The notes under the pieces are model-generated. The model worked only from the letters and a program-made list of their open reading frames with translations. It searched no databases and had not been told where the DNA came from. A program made the translations under genes and the position numbers. A stretch of 64,000 nucleotides of DNA. It comes from Naegleria gruberi (Eukaryota). The stretch is taken from NCBI GenBank assembly GCA_000004985.1, contig GG738877.1; one strand, 5' to 3'. This document shows, piece after piece, positions 1 to 26,161 of this stretch. Within the stretch, counting starts at the first letter, position 1. Each line of letters starts with the position of its first letter.

Positions 1-333
1 CAAACCCAAACCCAAAGGCAAACCCAAACCCAAACCCAAACCCAAACCCAAACCCAAACCCAAACCCAAACCCAAACCCAAACCCAAACCCAAACCCAAA
101 CCCAAACCCAAACCCAAACCCAAACCCAAATCCAAACCCAAACCCAAACCCAAACCCAAACCCAAACCCAAACCCAAACCCAAACCCAAACCCAAACCCA
201 AACCCAAACCCAAACCCAAACCCAAACCCAAACCCAAACCCAAACCCAAACCCAAACCCAAACCCAAACCCAAACCCAAACCCAAACCCAAACCCAAACC
301 CAAACCCAAACCCAAACCCAAACCCAAACCCAG
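1..333. repeat. Terminal telomeric repeat array (CCCAAA)n, G-strand TTTGGG, with a single variant at ~131
   Basis: Perfect 6-nt periodicity read directly from the sequence. The C-rich strand is on top at the left end, the orientation expected for a left chromosome terminus. Confidence 0.9.
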
Positions 334-699
334 AACTAAAAATAGAATTCTTCTAAACCCAACCTTCAAACCCTAGCCCAAAATTATAAACTTATTCAAA
401 TATCATTAAATTTTATATCATTCGATTGTAAATGATGAGTAGAACAACATGGTATATTTAGTTTTTCAATTTATAAAATATTAACTTTGTAAATAATGTC
501 AGATTAAAATTTGTAAAATGAAACTATAGGAAGAATGATAATTTCAAAATCCTTTAATGAGATTATATAGTCTATATCATCGTTAACAACATTCATAATC
601 ACTTTCATATAAAATTTCAAAAGTTCATGTTGGTAGGTATAAAAGTATCAAGTGAAAAGGGAAGATGTGAGGTAAAAGAGGTCAACAATAACTTTTGAG

Positions 700-1060
700 T
701 TTCTCATCAAAACATATTGAATCCTGACATCAAAATGTTCCATTTGATGAGTAAACATCGAATATCAAATTTATTTTAACTTTAATATTTAAAGATTTCT
801 TCCCTCAATCACACATGGTCTACTTTGATGAAAAGGATGAAACCAACATGATGTAGATGATATATAATGATATAGAATTCAATTTCATATCATAAAAATC
901 AGAAATGGTACCATGGGAAGGTAAATGTTGATATTTTATGATTGACTTTAGAGAAAGACAAGTCACACCAACTCTATCAAATATATCACTTCAATCAACA
1001 AAATATATATGAAAATGCTCCACTCGATGAGTAGAGATAGAATATTAAGTTTATTTTCAC
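700..1060. repeat. Subtelomeric ~50-bp element present in at least two copies (~712-762 and ~997-1060, ~80% identical) with a recurring GATGAGTA core (also near 434, 2517, 3250)
   Basis: Direct comparison: caaaatgttccatttgatgagtaaacatcgaatatcaaatttattttaac versus gaaaatgctccactcgatgagtagagatagaatattaagtttattttcac. Confidence 0.5.
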
Positions 1061-1801
1061 NNNNNNNNNNNNNNNNNNNNNNNNNNNNNNNNNNNNNNNN
1101 NNNNNNNNNNNNNNNNNNNNNNNNNNNNNNNNNNNNNNNNNNNNNNNNNNNNNNNNNNNNNNNNNNNNNNNNNNNNNNNNNNNNNNNNNNNNNNNNNNNN
1201 NNNNNNNNNNNNNNNNNNNNNNNNNNNNNNNNNNNNNNNNNNNNNNNNNNNNNNNNNNNNNNNNNNNNNNNNNNNNNNNNNNNNNNNNNNNNNNNNNNNN
1301 NNNNNNNNNNNNNNNNNNNNNNNNNNNNNNNNNNNNNNNNNNNNNNNNNNNNNNNNNNNNNNNNNNNNNNNNNNNNNNNNNNNNNNNNNNNNNNNNNNNN
1401 NNNNNNNNNNNNNNNNNNNNNNNNNNNNNNNNNNNNNNNNNNNNNNNNNNNNNNNNNNNNNNNNNNNNNNNNNNNNNNNNNNNNNNNNNNNNNNNNNNNN
1501 NNNNNNNNNNNNNNNNNNNNNNNNNNNNNNNNNNNNNNNNNNNNNNNNNNNNNNNNNNNNNNNNNNNNNNNNNNNNNNNNNNNNNNNNNNNNNNNNNNNN
1601 NNNNNNNNNNNNNNNNNNNNNNNNNNNNNNNNNNNNNNNNNNNNNNNNNNNNNNNNNNNNNNNNNNNNNNNNNNNNNNNNNNNNNNNNNNNNNNNNNNNN
1701 NNNNNNNNNNNNNNNNNNNNNNNNNNNNNNNNNNNNNNNNNNNNNNNNNNNNNNNNNNNNNNNNNNNNNNNNNNNNNNNNNNNNNNNNNNNNNNNNNNNN
1801 N
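1061..1801. other. Assembly gap (run of N, 741 nt)
   Basis: Continuous N characters. The ORFs reported across 963-2289 are artefacts of the N run and the hexamer repeat. Confidence 0.97.
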
Positions 1802-2236
1802 GCCCAAACCCAAACCCAAACCCAAACCCAAACCCAGGCCCAAACCCAAACCCAAACCCAAACCCAAACCCAAACCCAAACCCAAACCCAAACCCAAACC
1901 CAAACCCAAACCCAAACCCAAACCCAAACCCAAACCCAAACCCAAACCCAAACCCAAACCCAAACCCAAACCCAAACCCAAACCCAAACCCAAACCCAAA
2001 CCCAAACCCAAACCCAAACCCAAACCCAAACCCAAACCCAAACCCAAACCCAAACCCAAACCCAAACCAAAACCCAAACCCAAACCCAACCCAAACCCAA
2101 ACCCAAACCCAAACCCAAACCCAAACCCAAACCCAAACCCAACCCAAACCCAAACCCAAACCCAAACCCAAACCCAAACCCAAACCCAAACCCAACCCCC
2201 AAACCCAAACCCAAACCCAAACCCAAACCCAAACCC
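1802..2236. repeat. Second, internal (CCCAAA)n telomere-like array with degenerate variants (cccagg at ~1835, aaaacc at ~2066, cccaac at ~2086 and ~2140, ccccc at ~2196)
   Basis: Same hexamer in the same orientation as the terminal array. It lies immediately after the N gap and is followed by unique AT-rich sequence. Confidence 0.85.
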
Positions 2237-2966
2237 CTTGGTATTATGGCAATATTTCTATTGAGTATTGACATTGCAACATTTCCCAAATTGGTAATAT
2301 AGAAAATAAAATCATGATATCAATTATTTGTCGATAAAATGAATAGATATACGATATTATCAAATAAAATATATAGGTCCTTATTGAAAGTGTTTACCTG
2401 GTAAATAGTGAGCGTAACTTCCCCTACTTTCATCCTAATTGATTATCTCCCTATATATATGATAGATTTCAATTATTTCAATTACATATCATAATACATG
2501 ATAATTAGACATGTATCAATGAGTGGAATTAAGTCATGTAAGATATTCATCCTTCAATTACCAATATTGTCATTTTCACACAAGTTGACTTCCTACAGTC
2601 TGAATATGGATCCAGTCATGTCGATTTCAATTTTATATGATTATACTTGATATTTACTACAATATTTATGTGTTTGATTGAATGTTATAGTGTTTCCATA
2701 GTATGGCTCAATATCTTGGTCAATTAAGGTAGAATGAGTACAGTATACTAAGGATATCAAATATTATACTTCCAACAGTTCTACAAGGTAGATATCATCA
2801 TTATACATCATATATATGAGATTGATGATGATTGTAATAACATTCATATTATAGTACAATAAATGTTGAAAAGTTAATTTTTAGACAAGTTGTAATTTAT
2901 TACATATACCGATGCAACATGATTAATTCATAATATCATCTATTCATCTATATATCTACAATATGG

Positions 2967-3016
2967 NNNNNNNNNNNNNNNNNNNNNNNNNNNNNNNNNN
3001 NNNNNNNNNNNNNNNN
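2967..3016. other. Assembly gap (50 N)
   Basis: Run of N. Confidence 0.97.
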
Positions 3017-3587
3017 TTGAATATTGATCATTGAATTGGTGAATAATCACTCTCTTGATAATGTTACTTATTCATATTGCATGCAAATCAACCTGATTCA
3101 ATCTACAAAGGTTGGTAGTTGCACCACTTCGTGGCGAAACTACCCATCCACGATCAATCAACATTAGATTCACTTCCATTCAACTCAATTTGACCGTTAT
3201 AATCAATAAATCAATGAAATGTTCCTTTATTAGCAATACCAACACAATCCAATGAGTAGATTCACGTCCCAAACATTTGACTTCTCAAAGTCCATATTTC
3301 AAAAGTTGATACTGACCTGACCTTTATATATCTATCAATATAAGAAATGAAAACATCAAATTTACATCATTAATAGATTATAAGAAATATAATCAATGAT
3401 ATGAATCTTCACTAAGTAATCTCTTAAATAACCCAAATAAATCAACTCTGAATCCTAACCAAACCCAACCGCTTTTGATTACGATCAAAAAGAAGAACAA
3501 ACCCAAGAAATTAAACAAGGAGCAAGAAAGAAATACCAAAAAGAAATTGTTGTTATAGGAACACCAATTGTAAAGCTTTTAGAAGAG

Positions 3588-4469
3588 ATGAAGCGTAATG
3601 TAACCTGTTTAAATGATTGTTACCCAACTCAATCCTTTATCTATGTATTCCTTATTGGTAATGGAAGTATTTATTTGAAAGATTCTGATTTTGCAACTTC
3701 AAAAATGAATCTGTTGGTCTTTGGAAAGACTAAGAATATGATTGAGTTTGAACAAATAAGAGCAAGTATGAATGACAGATGGGAATGTGTACATTTATGG
3801 TTAATTGGTCCAGATAACAGCAGCAATAGTATTGAGCTTGTTAGGGAGATACTAATAGGAAAGTATTCAAGTAGATTTATTGATGAAACTGAGTTGAATT
3901 TCGCCGGTCTAAACAGAGTTCTTCCTGACCAGGAAAAGTTATTAGTCCCTTCAGATATGCTCGATGACTTTATCTATAAGAAGCAACATTTCATTGATTG
4001 GACAACCAAAACTCTATTCAAGTCTGCTTATGAAAGAGGAGAAAAAGTCTTGAGACCATCATTTTCTAGTGATGTTAACTTGGTTTTACATTCAATCTAC
4101 TCTGTCGTGTATGAATACTTAGATCTTTTAAGCGATGAAGATGATACTGTTTTATTTATACGTCCAGAAAATACTGAATTAGTATTGGAGGAAATGGATT
4201 TGCTAAACGGTTTTGAGTCTACCAGCAATAAGGATCACAGCACATTAGGGTACAACATTATTGTGAGAGAAAGATTTCCTGATGACGATATGATTGAAGT
4301 CAATGTAAACAGCCCAACAACAATCATGTATATTTTCAGATACGATGAAAAGGAAAGTAACGAAACCTTTGACATTGTTAAAAAAGTGGAAATATTTGGA
4401 GAGCCAACTTGGGCAATCGGCATTAGAAAAAAGGTTATCATGACAAATACTCTGATTTTTAAACAATAA
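3588..4469 (+). CDS. Hypothetical protein. The frame stays open upstream to ~3459 without an ATG, so the 5' end is probably an unseen upstream exon
   Basis: 293-aa ORF with coding-like composition. The upstream in-frame extension (...KEIVVIGTPIVKLLEEM...) reads like coding sequence. Confidence 0.4.
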   Translation: MKRNVTCLNDCYPTQSFIYVFLIGNGSIYLKDSDFATSKMNLLVFGKTKNMIEFEQIRASMNDRWECVHLWLIGPDNSSNSIELVREILIGKYSSRFIDETELNFAGLNRVLPDQEKLLVPSDMLDDFIYKKQHFIDWTTKTLFKSAYERGEKVLRPSFSSDVNLVLHSIYSVVYEYLDLLSDEDDTVLFIRPENTELVLEEMDLLNGFESTSNKDHSTLGYNIIVRERFPDDDMIEVNVNSPTTIMYIFRYDEKESNETFDIVKKVEIFGEPTWAIGIRKKVIMTNTLIFKQ

Positions 4470-5381
4470 TTCCATATTCAATAACGTGGGCAATAATGGT
4501 GGGTATTGAAATTAATGAATTAATGTATTCCTGTTATTAAACAGGAAAAATTGATACTCTTCAATAAAAATAGTTTTCTTAACACAATACAACAACACTA
4601 GCACAAATTCTTGCTTAGGTAATTGATTTGACGCAACAACACTCTGGAGTTTGACTTGTTTTTGAATCCATTCTGCAATTGTTCGTTGGTTGAATTGACA
4701 CCCTAAACATGGTGCAATCAATCCATAAACTAATCTTGTTAAGAAAGAGGGTTATATATTAGTTCGTTCTCAAGAATCAGTGAGGGATGAGAGGATGCAA
4801 AATCTTACTGTAATGTTCTATATTTCTATAAGGAGAATTAATCTTGCCACCATCAAGCATACAAATTAAAAAGCCATTGTAGAGAGAATAAAGTAAGCAA
4901 TTCACCATTTTCAGGTGAGGGACAAAGTATCAGCCTATGATCCAATCAAAAAAGTATCAAACAAACCATTCGTAGTTGCATCAAGTTCATACTAGCCAAG
5001 TACCAGCAACAATCACACAATCCGCAATCTCCCCAACTGTTATCCTGTGCTTACTTTCTGATATTCGATCATGAACTCCTGCGAGTTATCCACATCATCA
5101 GTACTGAGCTTTTGAAACAGCTATTGTTGTTGCGTAGTGAATCTACTGTAATACAATGAGTGCGTTAGAAAGAGGATAAGCTGATGAAAGGGCCATATTT
5201 TACTCCAACTCTAACACAAATAAGGTACAGTAAGTAACTGTAATTAGGAACAGTCCATTTTGAAAACTTTCAATGAAAAATTCATTCTGGCATAATGCCT
5301 TAAAAGAAACTAGCCCTTGTTTCACGGAATTATTCATAGTGGCATCCTCATCCACCACACAGTAACTTATCTTCTAGAAAA

Positions 5382-7985
5382 GTGTCTCACACAAGCAAAA
5401 AGAAAAAAATGGCCCAAGTGACACCTCTAGAAGTGGATGAAGTTTACGATGAAGAAGATAATTTTCTACAGGAACAAACTGTGAAGAGCTCGACCAATTG
5501 TTGTTGCTCCATCAACACAGTACTGGTAGCCATGACATCTTTAATAATCCTATTCTGTGTTTTGGTATTATCGGCTGTGTGGGTCTCAGCATTCAGTGTC
5601 CAAGTTGAGGAATTGAGTAATACGGTGAGACAAGAACACTTCGACAATATGTATTCAGCCACAACAGACTATTTGAAAACCATGTTGATAATGACAGAGT
5701 CTGTGAAATCGCAATTGTACACTGGATTTGATTTTAAGAATCAAACTCTCATAGCAGATCACACCTTTAGATTGTACAAGATGGAACGAAAGAATTTGGG
5801 AGATTGGGCACATGCCATGTTTGTTGGTTCTTCTATGGGTGATGCCTTTGGTATTTCCAGTTACAAAAACAATCCAATGTACATGAATATTACATATGGT
5901 CAAAATCAATTATATTGGTTATGTTTAAATTGGCAAAAGTTGGATTATTGCAAGAAAAACTCAACAACTCCAACAATGACTTTAGCTCCATTCAAGAATA
6001 TTCAAATTCTATACAATGCAGCAGCTTCAAATCCAGGTGGTTTTGCGTTTAGTCCTTCATTTATTGATTCAACCCATCCTTCATTGGTTTTGTTTGGTTG
6101 TGTGTCATCTTTTACACAAGGTTACATACCTCCAGGTAAAACCTTTAGTAATTATGTTTCTGTCTTGTTTGGTTCTGCAGAAATTACCAGTTTTCTAGTG
6201 GAAGCTTCATCCTCAATTCCAGGAAGTGTCACTTTTATCATTGAAAGAAACACAACGTACCTGCTCTCAACAGATAATCCTGCAAAGGCAACTGTGAAAT
6301 TCACCAATGGTACGAGTATCAGATATACAGTTAACAATTATGGTGGAAAGGTGTCAGAGATTGGAACTGAAGTAGCTAATCAACTGGGTTCTAAATTTGA
6401 TTCATTACCGTGTAACAATTACACTACACTTATTGTAAAGGGTACATACACCAGTGTCAAGAGACTTTGTACAAGTGAAGGAATTGATTGGTAAGTAGTT
6501 GAATTGAAATATTTCTCAATATTATTTAACACTAAACTTTCAGGGTATTCGTATTGAGTGTACCACAATGGAATTACATTGGATCTATGCTTATTGCCAT
6601 TATCGGTGCAATCGTTGCGTCTGTAATTATCATCTTTTTGGGAATAATCATTGCAGTCTTCTTCTCCTTCAAAATTGTAAAACCATTTAAAAACTTGATA
6701 GCTGCTTTCCAAAATGTATCGAATATGGAATTGGATGATTTGAAATTATACAAGACTTTGTTCTCTGAGGTCAAAACTCTGCAAACTCATTTCGTTGGAA
6801 TGGTTGACAAGATTAAACTTTACAGACAATTCATTCCACCTCATTTGTTAAGTAAATTGGATGATAATGAAGATATAGTACAAGAATCAGCTTCTCAAAT
6901 ATCTGTCAAGAAGGAAGAACCAAAGAGTTTCGCCCACTCCAATAGTGAAACTAAGGTTGACATGTCCAGTAGATCAATAACAACTCCAACAACAAATTCG
7001 AAACTCGATGTCAAGAAACAATTATCTGCCAAGAATATGTTCTCGTTGCACCTTGAGAAGAAACCCATTTCAGTCATTGGTGTCTGTATGCAAGGCATTA
7101 ATAGATGGTTCGTTGATCTAGCTCCTGAAGTGAGTGTTGATTTACTCGGTGGTTTATATGATCAGATTATGCAAATTTCCAAACCAAGTAATGGACAAGC
7201 ATGGAAATTTGAAAATGAAACTTTACTGATAACATTCAATGCATCTACCAATCAAAATGCTCACGAACTCAAATCCATTCAAACTGCATACACTCTATCG
7301 ACAAAACTAAAGGATTATACAAAGGTGAAACTCTTGAAGAATAATGCCTTTGCAGATCAACAAGAATTAACAGTTGACTTTTCTACAAAGATTGCAATTG
7401 CAACACAAGAGTGTCTATGTGGTAATATTGGTACTAAACAAGCAATGAGCTTTTCAATTCAAGGATCCATTCAGCAAAACATTGAAATGTTATTAGAAAC
7501 TGCTATTAGACTTGATATTTCAATTTTATTTGCATCTGAATTGAAATCAAAGGTCGATACCAAATATCAATTTAGATACATTGAAACTAAACAATTACTA
7601 GCCGACAATGTATTTACAGTTCCAGACAGATACAAACAATCGAATATTTTCAAAGAAGATTCATTGTACGAATTGGGTCTTTGTAATCAAGTGAACATGG
7701 ATGGTAAGTATTACAAAATACGTGTGAATAATATTTTAACACCTCTCTCTCAAAACTTTAGAATGGATGTATGAATTGGAAGAAAAGGAAAAGAAAGACA
7801 AGTGGAAGTTTTACAATCAAGCATGTGAATACTATTTCGATAAGGAGTATGATACAGCACTTGAAAGAATTGATGAATATTTGAAAAACTCTGCTAATAG
7901 CACTGATTTGGCAGCTCACAATTTGAGATCAGTGATAATGGATTTACAAGGGAATGCAAATTTCAAACTCAAATCTGTCAAATAA
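5382..7985 (+). CDS. Receptor-type (single-pass, HAMP/signalling-helix) adenylate/guanylate cyclase-like protein with a degenerate cyclase-homology domain. Exons 5382..6490, 6544..7703, 7762..7985
   Basis: N-terminal TM, ~300-aa extracellular region and a second TM (MLIAIIGAIVASVIIIFLGIIIAVFF). The pre-cyclase signalling helix is LKLYKTLFSEVKTLQTHFVGMVDKIKLYRQFIPPHLL, and the CHD-like region is ISVIGVCMQG...ETLLITFNAS...KIAIATQECLCGNIGTK. The metal-binding Asp positions are substituted. Introns gtaagtag..tttcag (6491-6543) and gtaagtatt..ctttag (7704-7761) join the three ORFs in frame. Confidence 0.6.
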
Positions 7986-17584: not shown

Positions 17585-19132
17585 TCAAGTATAAGAGGAT
17601 AATAGAGGCAATCTATAAACCTTTGAAACAGAGATCAAATAAAATGGATCCATTCCTACCTTTGCCAAAAGTGGTTTGAGAGCATTAAGCTTTACTCTAT
17701 CAATAACTTCACCAACTTGTTTTCTTCCAAACATGCTTGCCTTATTATCCAAAAATACCACCAACTTGTTATATGATGCCAGTAATTCTCCTTTAACTGA
17801 GAGATACTCAGGTGAGGCAAGAGCAGCTGCCCTGTTGCCTTTGTAAATCTTCTTTTCAATAGCTCTGAACTTGACCTTCTTGTAATGGAATCTACGAGTA
17901 ACTGTATCCATGAGTAGATCCACCAATTGCTCATCAAAGCCCTCTTCATCATTCTTTGAAGAACTTGATTTAATAACCGAAGCTCTGCTAGCATATCTGA
18001 GAGTGGAGAGGGTCTCACTTGCATTCTTCTCAACTGGACTGCAAGTAGCTACCATAATAGTTTTGGCTCGACCACCAAGAGTTGATTGAAGCATATTAGT
18101 CAGTACTGAATCTCTGAAAGGAACGTGAGCTTTTTTGATCCTTTCTTTAGCTTCATTCTTGTCCTTAAGTTTGGAAACTTGTTCAGAGAGTTCGGCCAAT
18201 TTGTTAATTACTCGTCCTAAATGAAGTAAACTGGTATTAATTGCAGTTCCTTCATCTCGTTCATCTTTACATTTGGCAATTTGACCTGTCTTTTCACTAC
18301 CAGCCAAGTCAACAAGATTGATTTGAGATTTGATAATTGTAGCATGATTTTCATCTGGTTGAAACTCTAAAGAAATTGTAAAGACTGCATGAGATCTTGA
18401 AGAGACATCATTCATGGCTGTTGCTCGAGTACTTCTATTGGAAAATCCACTGGTAATCAGTTTTCTAGCATCCTTCCAATTTTTAACATGTTTGTAACCA
18501 ATATTAGAGTGATAGTCGTAATATTGTCGATTCTTGGATCTGACCAACAAGTCACAAACCTTCTCATTATAAATCTCTACAAATCTACAAGAAACATGAA
18601 AATAGGAATACCTCCTCACAGATGTAAATATTTCCTTAACAACTCTTGGAATGATACCATGTTGTGAAAAGTCAGAATCTATAAATTCATGAATCGTATA
18701 AATTAAATCGTATGGCAAGATAAAGAAGAGTGGTTTCAGTGCCTCAAATAGCATTCCCTTAATTGCAGAAGGTTTATCAGAAGCTTCTTCCAATGCAGCA
18801 TAGAGATCTTCACCAAGCATTGTGTGAGTTTTACCACTCGATGTTTGTCCATATGCAAATAAACAACAATTGATACCACTCACTGCATTCTCCACAATGA
18901 TCTTTCCCAAATCATGATAAATTACCGATTGTGGAGTGTTTCCACCATAGACATGATCAAATTTAAATTCATCAACCACATGTTTGGTTCTATTATCAAT
19001 TGTTTTGGTAGCTCTCTTCACTTGGAGAGTATGTTCATCCTTTCTGATGGTGACAACCTTTTGTTTCTTCAATCCGACCATTTCCTCATATTTAGGTGGT
19101 CGAATTCTCACAGCAACTGTGATTGGTTCCAT
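17585..19132 (-). CDS. Kinesin-like motor protein (N-terminal motor domain). The C-terminal end is uncertain
   Basis: P-loop GQTSSGKTHTM, switch motifs SSRSHAVF and LVDLAGSE, and HVPFRDSVLT. Confidence 0.85.
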   Translation of the reverse strand: MEPITVAVRIRPPKYEEMVGLKKQKVVTIRKDEHTLQVKRATKTIDNRTKHVVDEFKFDHVYGGNTPQSVIYHDLGKIIVENAVSGINCCLFAYGQTSSGKTHTMLGEDLYAALEEASDKPSAIKGMLFEALKPLFFILPYDLIYTIHEFIDSDFSQHGIIPRVVKEIFTSVRRYSYFHVSCRFVEIYNEKVCDLLVRSKNRQYYDYHSNIGYKHVKNWKDARKLITSGFSNRSTRATAMNDVSSRSHAVFTISLEFQPDENHATIIKSQINLVDLAGSEKTGQIAKCKDERDEGTAINTSLLHLGRVINKLAELSEQVSKLKDKNEAKERIKKAHVPFRDSVLTNMLQSTLGGRAKTIMVATCSPVEKNASETLSTLRYASRASVIKSSSSKNDEEGFDEQLVDLLMDTVTRRFHYKKVKFRAIEKKIYKGNRAAALASPEYLSVKGELLASYNKLVVFLDNKASMFGRKQVGEVIDRVKLNALKPLLAKVGMDPFYLISVSKVYRLPLLSSYT

Positions 19133-19993
19133 GTTAATTATTTCGCTTCTAGTACTTTTTCAATATGTTCTTATTAATATTTGTGAATGATGATGAATAA
19201 ATTCACCTTAGTCAGATAATAATATTATATGATACTTTTAAAAGTGTATTACAAGCAAGTACTATTGTAGGTACTTTCTTTTTGATATGATTTTGATAAT
19301 ATTATATTATTAGCGTGATTATTGCATCATCACAGATTATTTAATATGTTACACAATTTGAGTGTGTTAGAAGACGGAACATTTTTCGTTATGGCGGTTG
19401 GAAAGGGTTTGTTGTTATACAGCTACTGGTTGTTCCTCTCTGATACAAAGTTTCATCTCTTTTTGAATGTTACTTCAGCATTGAATATTGAATGTATTCA
19501 ATGGCTAAGACATAATATTGTATTATTTAAATATTTTTTTAAAATAATATTTAAAGATTTTTTAAAATAGCAAAAAAATTAGCCGCTCAACTGCTGGTGA
19601 TCACTTCATTGTCCATAATCATCATGATTTAACAATTATTAAATAATTAAATAATTAATTCGAATAACAATCAATTCATCATAATATCAACATGTAAAAT
19701 CTCTGCTCATTACCACCTCCGACTCCGATCCTTTTAAATGCTTCAAACATGATGATTGAAGACACATTCATTGAATTAATAATTTCTTGGTGTTTCTTGT
19801 TCTCCAATAACAACAAATCATCAACAACAACAACAACACTTGTGTTGGGTATAACAATTAATTGATCCTTTGCAAAAAGGTACCCCAACCGTAAACAACT
19901 TCAACAACAACACTTCAGGAGAATTTACTGGTAATACAAAACAACAAGGAAGCAAAGAGAGAGGAAGAATCACTTTGAAAAAAAACAAACAAA

Positions 19994-24146: not shown

Positions 24147-26161
24147 ATGACTTCAAAACTCTTAGAAGAAAGATATCGTGAAGCACTCAGAGAATTGTCC
24201 GTCTCCTCCCGAGACAATATGATGTGTGTTGATTGTATGAGCAAGAAGAAGACCTCCTTCATTGTTCTCCAATTTCAAAGTTATATTTGTGAGATGTGTG
24301 CCGATGTACATCGAACATATGGTCATCGTGGAGTAAAACAAATTGGATTATCCAATGTTACTAAAGAAGAGGTTGAAGAGATGAGACAAGGTGGTAATCA
24401 AAAGGTTAAAGCCGCTTGGTATGGTGGAAATTATGATCAAATTGTTCGTCCAAATCCTGAAACATGTGCCTCCGATAAGGAATTTAAAGAAAAGGCTAAA
24501 GAACACATCAAGAAGGTTTATATTCAAAGACTTTATAAGACTGGTGGTGGTTCTACTCCTGGAAATGTTGGTAATTCCAATACAACCACTACTACTAATA
24601 CAAATCAACAATCTTCGACTCCTATCGGATCAAATAATAATAATCAACAAATGCCATACAATAACGTTCAATACAATAATGGAGGCATTGATACTAGAAC
24701 AAGAGGTGCTAGTTTGAATACTACACAATATGCTAATTTGAAGACAACCAATTCAGCTTCAATTATTCAATCATCAAATATTAGTGGTTGGTTGGTAATG
24801 GTAATGGTGGTGGTAACAAGAATAATGATTTGATTTCATTTGGTGGAAGTGATTCTCAACCTGTACAATCTGTGATGAGTAGTTTTAATCAACCACCAAA
24901 GCAACAACCACAACAACAACAACCAATGATGAATCAACAACCACCACAACAACAATATGGTCAACCACAAATGATGAATCAACCACAATATGGTAATAAC
25001 AATAATTATCCACCAAATAATAATTATAATAATAATTACAATAATAACTTTAATCAAGGAATGTCATATGGAAACAATCAAATGATGAATAATAATGGTG
25101 GTTATGGTGGTTATAACAATAATAACATGATGAATCAACAACAACCAATGATGAACAATGGTTATAACAATAATTATGGATACAACAATAATGGCATGAT
25201 GAATCAACAACAACCAATGATGAACAACAATAATGGTATGATGAATCAAAATTATGGTTATGGTCAACAACCACAACAATATAACAACATGAACAATAAC
25301 TATAATAACAATATGGGTTATGGTCAACCACAAGGAATGCAATACGGAAACAACAATCAACAACCAATGATGAATAACAGTAGACCACAAATTTCCTCTC
25401 CACCACAAACTCCACCTGTTAATAATAATAATAACAACAACTATGGAATGACACCAACCAATGTAAATATTAGTCCAAGACAACCATCCCAACCATCCAT
25501 GCCTATCAATCCTATGGGATACAATAATCAATATGGTACTCCAATGACTCCAAGTCAACCACCTCAATCTACTATTACTCCTGTCAATCCATACGTTGGC
25601 ACTTCACCAAGAAGTAATAACATTCCAACTCCACCTCCAACCAATCTTAATGTTGTTTCTCCATCAAGAAGTGCAAGCATGCCTCCAAAGTCAACTCCTC
25701 CATCATTTGGTTCAACAAGTACCATTAATCAACCTCCTACTTCTGTTCCACCAAGACAACCATCCCAACCAGTTAGAACTCCATCAATGGCTTCATCAAC
25801 AATATCAGTTCCAAGAAAAGAGGGTAATAATGATAGTTTGTCAAACCAATTCAACAACATGTCTCTTTCATCATCAACCAAGCCAGTCACCACTTCAACA
25901 GTTCCAAAGAGTACTCCACCATCTACTGCTACCACTTCCACTTCCACAACAGGTCAAAAGCCACCTGTAGGAGTTACTAGTGGTGCTGGTCTTCTTGTTG
26001 GTTCAACTAAAAAGATTGATTCTTCAGAATTTGAAAAGGCAACCACAACTGGTGTACATATGGACGATCTTCGTGGTAATGCCAGTAAGGACAATACTAA
26101 ATTCAAGGAAATCAATCCAAACAGAGTCATTCCATTGAAGCAAACTACTGAATGGCAATAA
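24147..26161 (+). CDS. ArfGAP-domain protein of the AGFG/HRB type with a very long N/Q/M/P-rich (prion-like, FG-nucleoporin-like) tail. It is encoded by two overlapping ORFs (24147..24833 and 24788..26161) offset by -1
   Basis: The ArfGAP zinc finger is CVDCMSKKKTSFIVLQFQSYICEMCADVHRTYGHRGVKQIGLSNVTKEEVEEMRQGGNQKVKAAW. The second ORF continues the N/Q-rich composition. No GT..AG intron fits the junction. Confidence 0.6.

Follow-up and report, generated by a model that had tools for sequence, protein, structure and literature searches.

Two (CCCAAA)n telomere tracts in one orientation at a scaffold end of Naegleria gruberi: alternative termini or a nested subtelomere?

The first 64 kb of a Naegleria gruberi scaffold (GG738877.1, assembly GCA_000004985.1; this whole 64,000-nt stretch is called the window here, with “distal” meaning towards its left end and “proximal” meaning inward) carry two tracts of the repeat (CCCAAA)n, an outer one at 1-333 and an inner one at 1802-2236, which are held apart by AT-rich DNA and a run of Ns. 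Both arrays are genuine N. gruberi telomere tracts, representing the C-rich strand of telomerase-made (TTTGGG)n, the motif itself being an in-silico candidate for the species. We lean towards reading them as alternative termini, not present together on a single DNA molecule, that were either mis-scaffolded or derived from a heterozygous end, truncated and healed in one of its versions.

The left ~3 kb consist of three pieces split by Ns, and past 3016 an unbroken contig runs up to 64000. Both N runs of the window fall in this terminal ~3 kb and the remaining 61 kb are gap-free; the assembly is therefore fragmentary exactly at the scaffold end. The parts of this end are the following.

Contig 1, 1-1060: telomere-capped, then AT-rich non-telomeric DNA.
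Outer telomere tract (CCCAAA)n, 1-333, plus strand: ~55 units, open at the scaffold and contig edge.
Junction zone, 334-385, plus strand: degenerate telomere-like islands CTAAACCCAACC and CAAACCCTAGCCCAAAA (352-383), adjoining the outer array.
Module Y, 334-1060, no strand assigned: non-coding subtelomeric module with a ~280-bp degenerate direct repeat, the contig ending inside the last copy.
Scaffold gap, 1061-1801: 741 N, the sole link between contig 1 and the inner array.
Contig 2, 1802-2966: opens inside the inner array; ~1.1 kb in size, like contig 1.
Inner telomere tract (CCCAAA)n, 1802-2236, plus strand: ~72 units, open at the left edge of contig 2.
Module Z, 2237-2966, no strand assigned: the non-coding, unique part of contig 2, with a degenerate 149-bp direct repeat.
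Second scaffold gap, 2967-3016: 50 N, the sole link between contig 2 and the main 61-kb contig.

Both arrays read the C-strand 5' to 3' on the plus strand, which is the orientation expected for a left chromosome end, and the gap at 1061-1801 lies between them; this confirms the original prediction of same-orientation arrays across an N gap. The distal flank of the inner array is made of Ns only, and not a single sequenced base joins non-telomeric DNA to its left side. Since 741 Ns are all that bounds the inner array distally, the tandem arrangement is a statement of the scaffolding and not an observation of the sequence. An overlap between the facing ends of contig 2 and the main contig was looked for as well, and none was found.

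Anatomy of the tracts, their junctions and their flanks

Tandem Repeats Finder assigned a 6-nt period to the outer array over 1-332 (55.3 copies, 98% matches) and to the inner array over 1803-2236 (72.5 copies, 96% matches, 1% indels). On the two strands of the window there are 110 copies of the dimer CCCAAACCCAAA, every one within the two arrays, so that the array positions given in the original prediction are borne out by both measures. TTTGGGTTTGGG and the CCCCAA variants have zero occurrences across the 64 kb. In motif and in position the two arrays have the features of terminal telomeres: they comprise 55 and 72 units of the species' reported candidate motif TTTGGG, the outer array stands at scaffold base 1, and the inner array stands at the first base of contig 2.

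The imperfect units of the inner array are CCCAGG at 1833, CCAAAA at 2067, CCCAA at 2085, 2138 and 2191, and CCCCCAAA at 2196. The distal 44 units hold a single variant (CCCAGG, 32 nt from the open contig edge) and the proximal 28 units hold five; put in another way, five of the six lie in the proximal 170 bp (2067-2203), which make up 39% of the array (binomial P ~0.04). The earlier remark that the variants of the inner block look like those in the proximal part of a real telomere has held up well on this count. When telomerase keeps a telomere in turnover, variants gather near its base and its distal part stays clean. The inner array, with its clean distal part, proximal variants and abrupt junction, resembles a working terminal telomere and not an old internal tract. 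An interstitial telomeric sequence (ITS) would be expected to have contiguous non-telomeric DNA on both sides and degeneration spread along the tract. The inner array has Ns on its distal side, and its variants are proximal except for the one at the contig edge, whereas a degenerate cluster further inward, at 3430-3506, does have contiguous non-telomeric DNA on either side. In the outer array, variant units are found solely at 11-22 and 125-136, towards the open edge, and the proximal 32 units are perfect.

The three CCCAA units of the inner array, in the 2085-2203 region, are spaced exactly 53 nt apart, corresponding to a higher-order unit of CCCAA + (CCCAAA)8. This spacing indicates a small higher-order duplication or an unequal exchange in the proximal telomere, and not random read errors.

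The junction of the inner array with its proximal flank, at 2236/2237, is abrupt: CCCAAACCCC is followed directly by TTGGTATT, with one extra C/G at the joint (CCCC/TTGG). The 60 nt past 2236 are free of telomere-like islands and contain a single CCCAAA, at 2285. This joint has the look of a de novo added or simple terminal telomere. Perfect repeats abutting unique DNA, as would be expected of a healed break, are found at 2236/2237 and are not found at the outer junction, where the islands at 352-383 intervene. The outer junction reads CCCAG followed by AACTAAAAATAG, with neither poly(A) nor poly(T). An exact 24-mer of 2237-2260 was sought in metagenome contigs as the unbroken counterpart of the inner site, and it was not found.

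The DNA on the proximal side of each array is of a similar kind but of different sequence. The direct repeat of module Y pairs 729-780 with 1009-1060 (81%, E 1e-7), with a weaker copy near 428-470, and the longest stop-free stretch in any of the six frames of its visible 727 bp is 56 codons. The repeat of module Z, which lies just inside the inner telomere, has a 149-bp period and pairs 2475-2713 with 2624-2861 (61%, E 7e-6). Both modules are non-coding, AT-rich, similar in size and internally repetitive, and they are mutually unrelated: the best cross-match between 334-1060 and 2237-2966 has an E of 0.007, which is no better than that obtained with random parts of the window. As the similarity of the modules is only at the background level, the two contigs hold two different telomere-adjacent sequences and not alleles of one sequence, and the possibility that they are allelic copies of one end was ruled out for this reason. 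A coding or RNA function of the spacer was also considered and rejected, since there are no open reading frames (ORFs) in it, and the best Rfam hits in 1-5000 and in an environmental relative of the spacer, described below, have E values of 0.05-0.06, far below gathering scores. The segment 334-1060 had been taken as unique sequence ending in an assembly gap. It does end in the gap that starts at 1061, but it is not strictly unique, given its ~280-bp repeat and its environmental relative.

By searching scaffold ends, Fulneckova et al. (2013; PMC3622300) arrived at TTTGGG as the candidate telomere motif of N. gruberi, and they stress that its terminal position still awaits experimental confirmation. 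The arrays described here agree with this candidate in organism, in hexamer and in the criterion applied (a scaffold-terminal position with the C-strand reading inward), with no difference in the motif, and doubled arrays at this scaffold end are not described in the main text of that paper (PMC3622300). The suggestion that the unit is informative for the lineage is supported, although this had already been reported in 2013. No statement on Naegleria telomeres is found in the N. fowleri nanopore paper or in the pangenome paper (PMC9928731). The TTTGGG repeat, together with many long ORFs under genetic code table 6, also prompted us to consider a ciliate macronuclear chromosome with alternative telomere addition sites. 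Paramecium telomeres mix TTTGGG with TTGGGG. The ciliate reading was dropped on three grounds: the long stretch that holds a kinesin gene of the window is free of in-frame TAA and TAG, the closest named homologs of this kinesin belong to Naegleria, and an N. gruberi protein matches the product of the first gene at 100% identity.

An environmental relative of the spacer and a third telomere-like cluster

When metagenome contigs were scanned with the core of the module Y repeat, a sole contig came up, VFQN01031297.1 (2627 bp, GCA_006365155.1; the environmental contig from here on). Its positions 1218-1906 align to window 402-1060 with 88.8% identity over 690 columns, and a MAFFT alignment extends the match back to window ~364. 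It is the one relative of module Y that was found, further scans having yielded no more. On the strength of this similarity the spacer 334-1060 appears to belong to a sequence family that is present in another context, and with a relative in such a different context the misplacement or collapse of a repeated subtelomeric contig becomes plausible.

In place of the window's outer telomere, the environmental contig has short C-strand telomere-like islands in a ~110-nt zone (1107-1219). They include, at 1147, the CCCAAACCCAAAC-type 13-mer seed CCAAACCCAAACC, a 2-unit telomere-like relic, and the island TTCAAACCCTAGCCCAA of the 334-385 zone is common to the window and this contig. All the CCCAAA matches of the contig, and three of its four AAACCC matches, fall within 1110-1213; upstream of the islands there is 1.1 kb of unrelated non-telomeric DNA. 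Judged by the alignment, the islands lie at nearly the same place as the outer array of the window; base-for-base homology is not claimed, and the 32 nt beside the outer junction do not by themselves give a significant alignment with the environmental contig. At its other end the contig continues for 720 bp beyond the point matching the end of contig 1, and this extra stretch contains no telomere repeat and nothing resembling the window from 2237 onward.

A few other features of the environmental contig may be added here. With its island zone, the contig offers a short interstitial tract of telomere-like sequence from a Naegleria-like genome. It has a degenerate direct repeat of ~310 bp (1543-1731 against 1853-2039, 77%), and a protein search with one of its ORFs returned only the ORF itself.

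Contiguous sequence in the window itself holds a third group of telomere-like repeats, close to the start of the first gene.

Degenerate telomere-like cluster, 3430-3506, plus strand: AACCCAAA at 3430, CCAAACCCAA at 3459 and CAAACCCAA at 3498, in contiguous sequence and in the same orientation as the arrays.
First scaffold gene, 3588-4469, plus strand: an orphan 293-aa protein, with 100% identity and coverage to “predicted protein [Naegleria gruberi]”.

The cluster sits ~1.2 kb inward of the inner array and 80-160 nt upstream of the ATG of the gene. The 150-nt window 3384-3533 contains 12 matches to rotations of the hexamer; elsewhere in 2300-64000, on either strand, the maximum is 4 and the mean 0.21. 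The cluster may be a relic, left where a telomere stood earlier, or it may be a telo-box-like promoter element. A conserved junction element common to 3420-3520 and to 1095-1225 of the environmental contig was considered and discarded: 33 of 3000 shuffles reached its score and other tiles of the window equaled it, and outside the islands themselves 3420-3520 has no significant similarity to the island zone.

Alternative termini and the competing explanations

The explanation we prefer can be put in a few steps. Each tract caps its own short Sanger-era contig, with its distal side open, and the tandem order was made by the scaffolder across the 741 Ns. The inner tract would cap the chromosome at 2237 in all or some of its copies, and contig 1 would be one copy, capped by a telomere, of a family of subtelomeric repeats. 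For contig 1, two origins can be envisaged. It may come from the longer homologue (a), in a heterozygous strain whose truncated homologue was healed by de novo telomere addition at 2237, or it may come from another chromosome end (b) and have been attached through mate pairs. As to the first origin, Naegleria strains, N. gruberi among them, have been reported as heterozygous and as showing variation in ploidy as well as loss of heterozygosity (PMC9928731). Origins (a) and (b) are both compatible with the working-telomere anatomy and clean junction of the inner tract, with flanks that are unrelated, with a spacer that belongs to a sequence family, and with an assembly that is fragmentary here. 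The anatomy, organism and motif, the absence of contiguous sequence distal to the inner array and the presence of a relative of the spacer elsewhere are direct observations; we infer that the two tracts most likely do not coexist on one molecule, and any choice between (a) and (b) would be of the same inferential kind. A telomere-bearing contig linked by paired reads, wrongly or to an alternative end, could, we would argue, only land distal to another telomere of the same orientation, as is seen here.

The arrangement resembles the telomere-next-to-gap misjoins and the alternative-haplotype contigs of draft assemblies, in that the array starts at a gap and a contig edge and its neighbor is tiny and telomere-capped; the misjoin in the present case is a proposed one. 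Chromosome healing by de novo telomere addition is known from ciliate macronuclear fragmentation and from yeast and human terminal deletions. The abrupt joint of repeat and unique DNA at 2237 is like the product of such healing, and the environmental contig holds a 13-nt seed near the site of the outer array with other DNA beyond it. Unlike the documented cases of healing, the outer array would accommodate both directions of change given the window and the environmental contig, from seed to telomere as well as from telomere to relic.

Some considerations do weigh against this explanation. Scaffolders normally need consistent mate pairs, and if reads anchored in 334-1060 had mates in the main contig there would be a real physical linkage over a few kb; such a linkage would exclude origin (b), but not (a). 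There is also the contiguous, same-orientation cluster at 3430-3506 which, together with the tract of the environmental contig, makes it seem that internalized tracts occur at module boundaries in this lineage, and this makes a real nested structure plausible.

Such a nested subtelomere, on one molecule, is the rival that survives best, and we consider it possible but on the whole unlikely. It would consist of a telomere, a module Y of ~1.5 kb, an internal tract of at least 435 bp, a module Z of ~1.2 kb, the relic at 3430-3506 and then the genes. The end would have grown outward in steps, each of them placing a captured terminal module and a fresh telomere outside the existing one, be it through break-induced replication or through recombination of a telomere with a telomere-like tract of another end; the 435-bp inner telomere would have been internalized recently, and in the environmental contig we would see the same module after decay of its telomere to a 13-nt island. 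The placement of contig 1 is in keeping with this: it was put distal and in the same orientation, and the non-round gap size of 741 would imply support from paired reads. The 12 hexamer matches of the cluster, contiguous and in the same orientation, against at most 4 elsewhere, argue for it too, as does the fact that the environmental relative of module Y is bounded distally by the ~110 nt of islands, CCAAACCCAAACC among them, beyond which the DNA is non-telomeric. The shared character of modules Y and Z (non-coding, AT-rich, similar in size and internally repetitive) is a further point in its favor. Against it, there is no sequenced passage from non-telomeric DNA into the inner array on the distal side, and an array of 72 units that is 96% perfect, with its variants at the proximal end, does not look like a decayed interstitial tract and is unlike the proven internal tracts, at 3430-3506 and in the environmental contig, which are islands of 8-13 nt. 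The cluster could be a promoter element instead. Its likeness to the environmental island zone does not extend significantly beyond the islands. A weak objection comes from the 720 bp of the environmental contig past the end of contig 1, which pass without a telomere repeat; that contig is 89% identical to the window, and the gap estimate is uncertain.

Comparable ends are known in other organisms. Yeast ends of the X-(TG1-3)-Y' type have Y' elements with internal TG1-3 tracts, and the boundaries of human subtelomeric duplicons carry (TTAGGG)n islands. The N. gruberi end is similar in having modules of ~1-1.5 kb bounded by telomere or telomere-like tracts of one orientation, if the relic at 3430-3506 and the islands of the environmental contig are counted. 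It differs from the yeast ends in that its modules are non-coding, with at most 56 stop-free codons in 334-1060, whereas Y' encodes a helicase, and in that its large inner tract is only putatively internal.

The original prediction had offered two alternatives, a mis-scaffolded piece or a genuine interstitial telomeric sequence from an ancient end-healing or fusion event. This was the right pair to consider, and the evidence leans to a juxtaposition at the level of scaffolding or assembly; an ancient event, in particular, does not sit well with 72 units that are 96% perfect. An internal position of the inner array, if real, must have been acquired recently.

Two other explanations carry little weight. 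Contig 1 could be a chimeric clone, or contaminating DNA of another organism with TTTGGG telomeres, and the contig is indeed only 1060 bp long (~1-2 Sanger reads) and was left unextended even though the environmental contig has ordinary sequence beyond the matching point. This is very improbable nonetheless, as its AT-rich, non-coding, degenerate-repeat style matches that of the neighboring N. gruberi subtelomere, its telomere motif is the N. gruberi one, and the window has no other sign of contamination. Less probable still is that the spacer 334-1801 is a telomere-targeted mobile element of the MoTeR or SART/TRAS type which split one array in two. A telomere-element-telomere arrangement in one orientation is the footprint of such elements, MoTeR in Magnaporthe and SART/TRAS in Bombyx, and both this arrangement and the relative of the spacer elsewhere would agree with it; however, the visible 727 bp have no ORF of more than 56 codons (about half of the putative element being hidden in the gap), the telomere junction lacks a poly(A) or a fixed terminus, an autonomous element would need more than the implied ~1.5 kb, the environmental relative is not embedded in telomere repeats, and no Rfam match in 1-5000 is better than E 0.06, which falls short of the gathering cut-off.

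The rest of the window and the meaning of the scaffold end

Among 5.8 billion proteins, the product of the first gene, 3588-4469, has no homolog but itself. No Pfam domain is present in the three ORFs closest to the chromosome end (3588-4469, 5382-6494 and 6554-7774). The kinesin gene mentioned above, at 17588-19159 on the minus strand and 18 kb from the scaffold end, encodes 515 aa and lies in a 524-codon stretch with no in-frame TAA or TAG; its best named relatives are those of Naegleria lovaniensis (57%) and N. fowleri (54%). The orthologs in these two species are more than 170 kb inside their contigs and have different gene neighbors, so the scaffold end is not syntenic among these species. 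A 99% identical kinesin is found only on a 2.2-kb ENA metagenome contig (ERZ929261). An independent copy of the end was sought through exact-protein look-ups of the first gene, which gave no contig, and scans of bacterial genomes gave nothing, or 18 matches where 17 are expected by chance, with no wider similarity. Further inward, 24887-25271 contains long CAA/AAT-rich coding repeats, poly-Q/N-like in type and Dictyostelium-like in look, for which Tandem Repeats Finder gives periods of 45, 69 and 21; on account of this look a social amoeba was for a time considered as the source.

A Flye assembly of N. gruberi from nanopore data exists, and the reads are public (PMC12695648). For users of the N. 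gruberi reference, it is worth keeping in mind that the terminal 3 kb of this scaffold are not a proven interstitial telomere, and that the chromosome may truly end at 2237 or at 334, or at each of these in different homologues. TTTGGG is so far an in-silico candidate, and the junctions at 334 and 2237 are ready probes for the motif.

To our knowledge, the telomeres and subtelomeres of heteroloboseans are almost undescribed. If the termini are heterozygous or nested, this end would document terminal truncation and healing, or else modular subtelomere growth, in the lineage, a useful outcome, though not a surprising one in view of yeast, humans and ciliates. If true, the nested structure would give the first account of how a subtelomere is built and changes in a heterolobosean.

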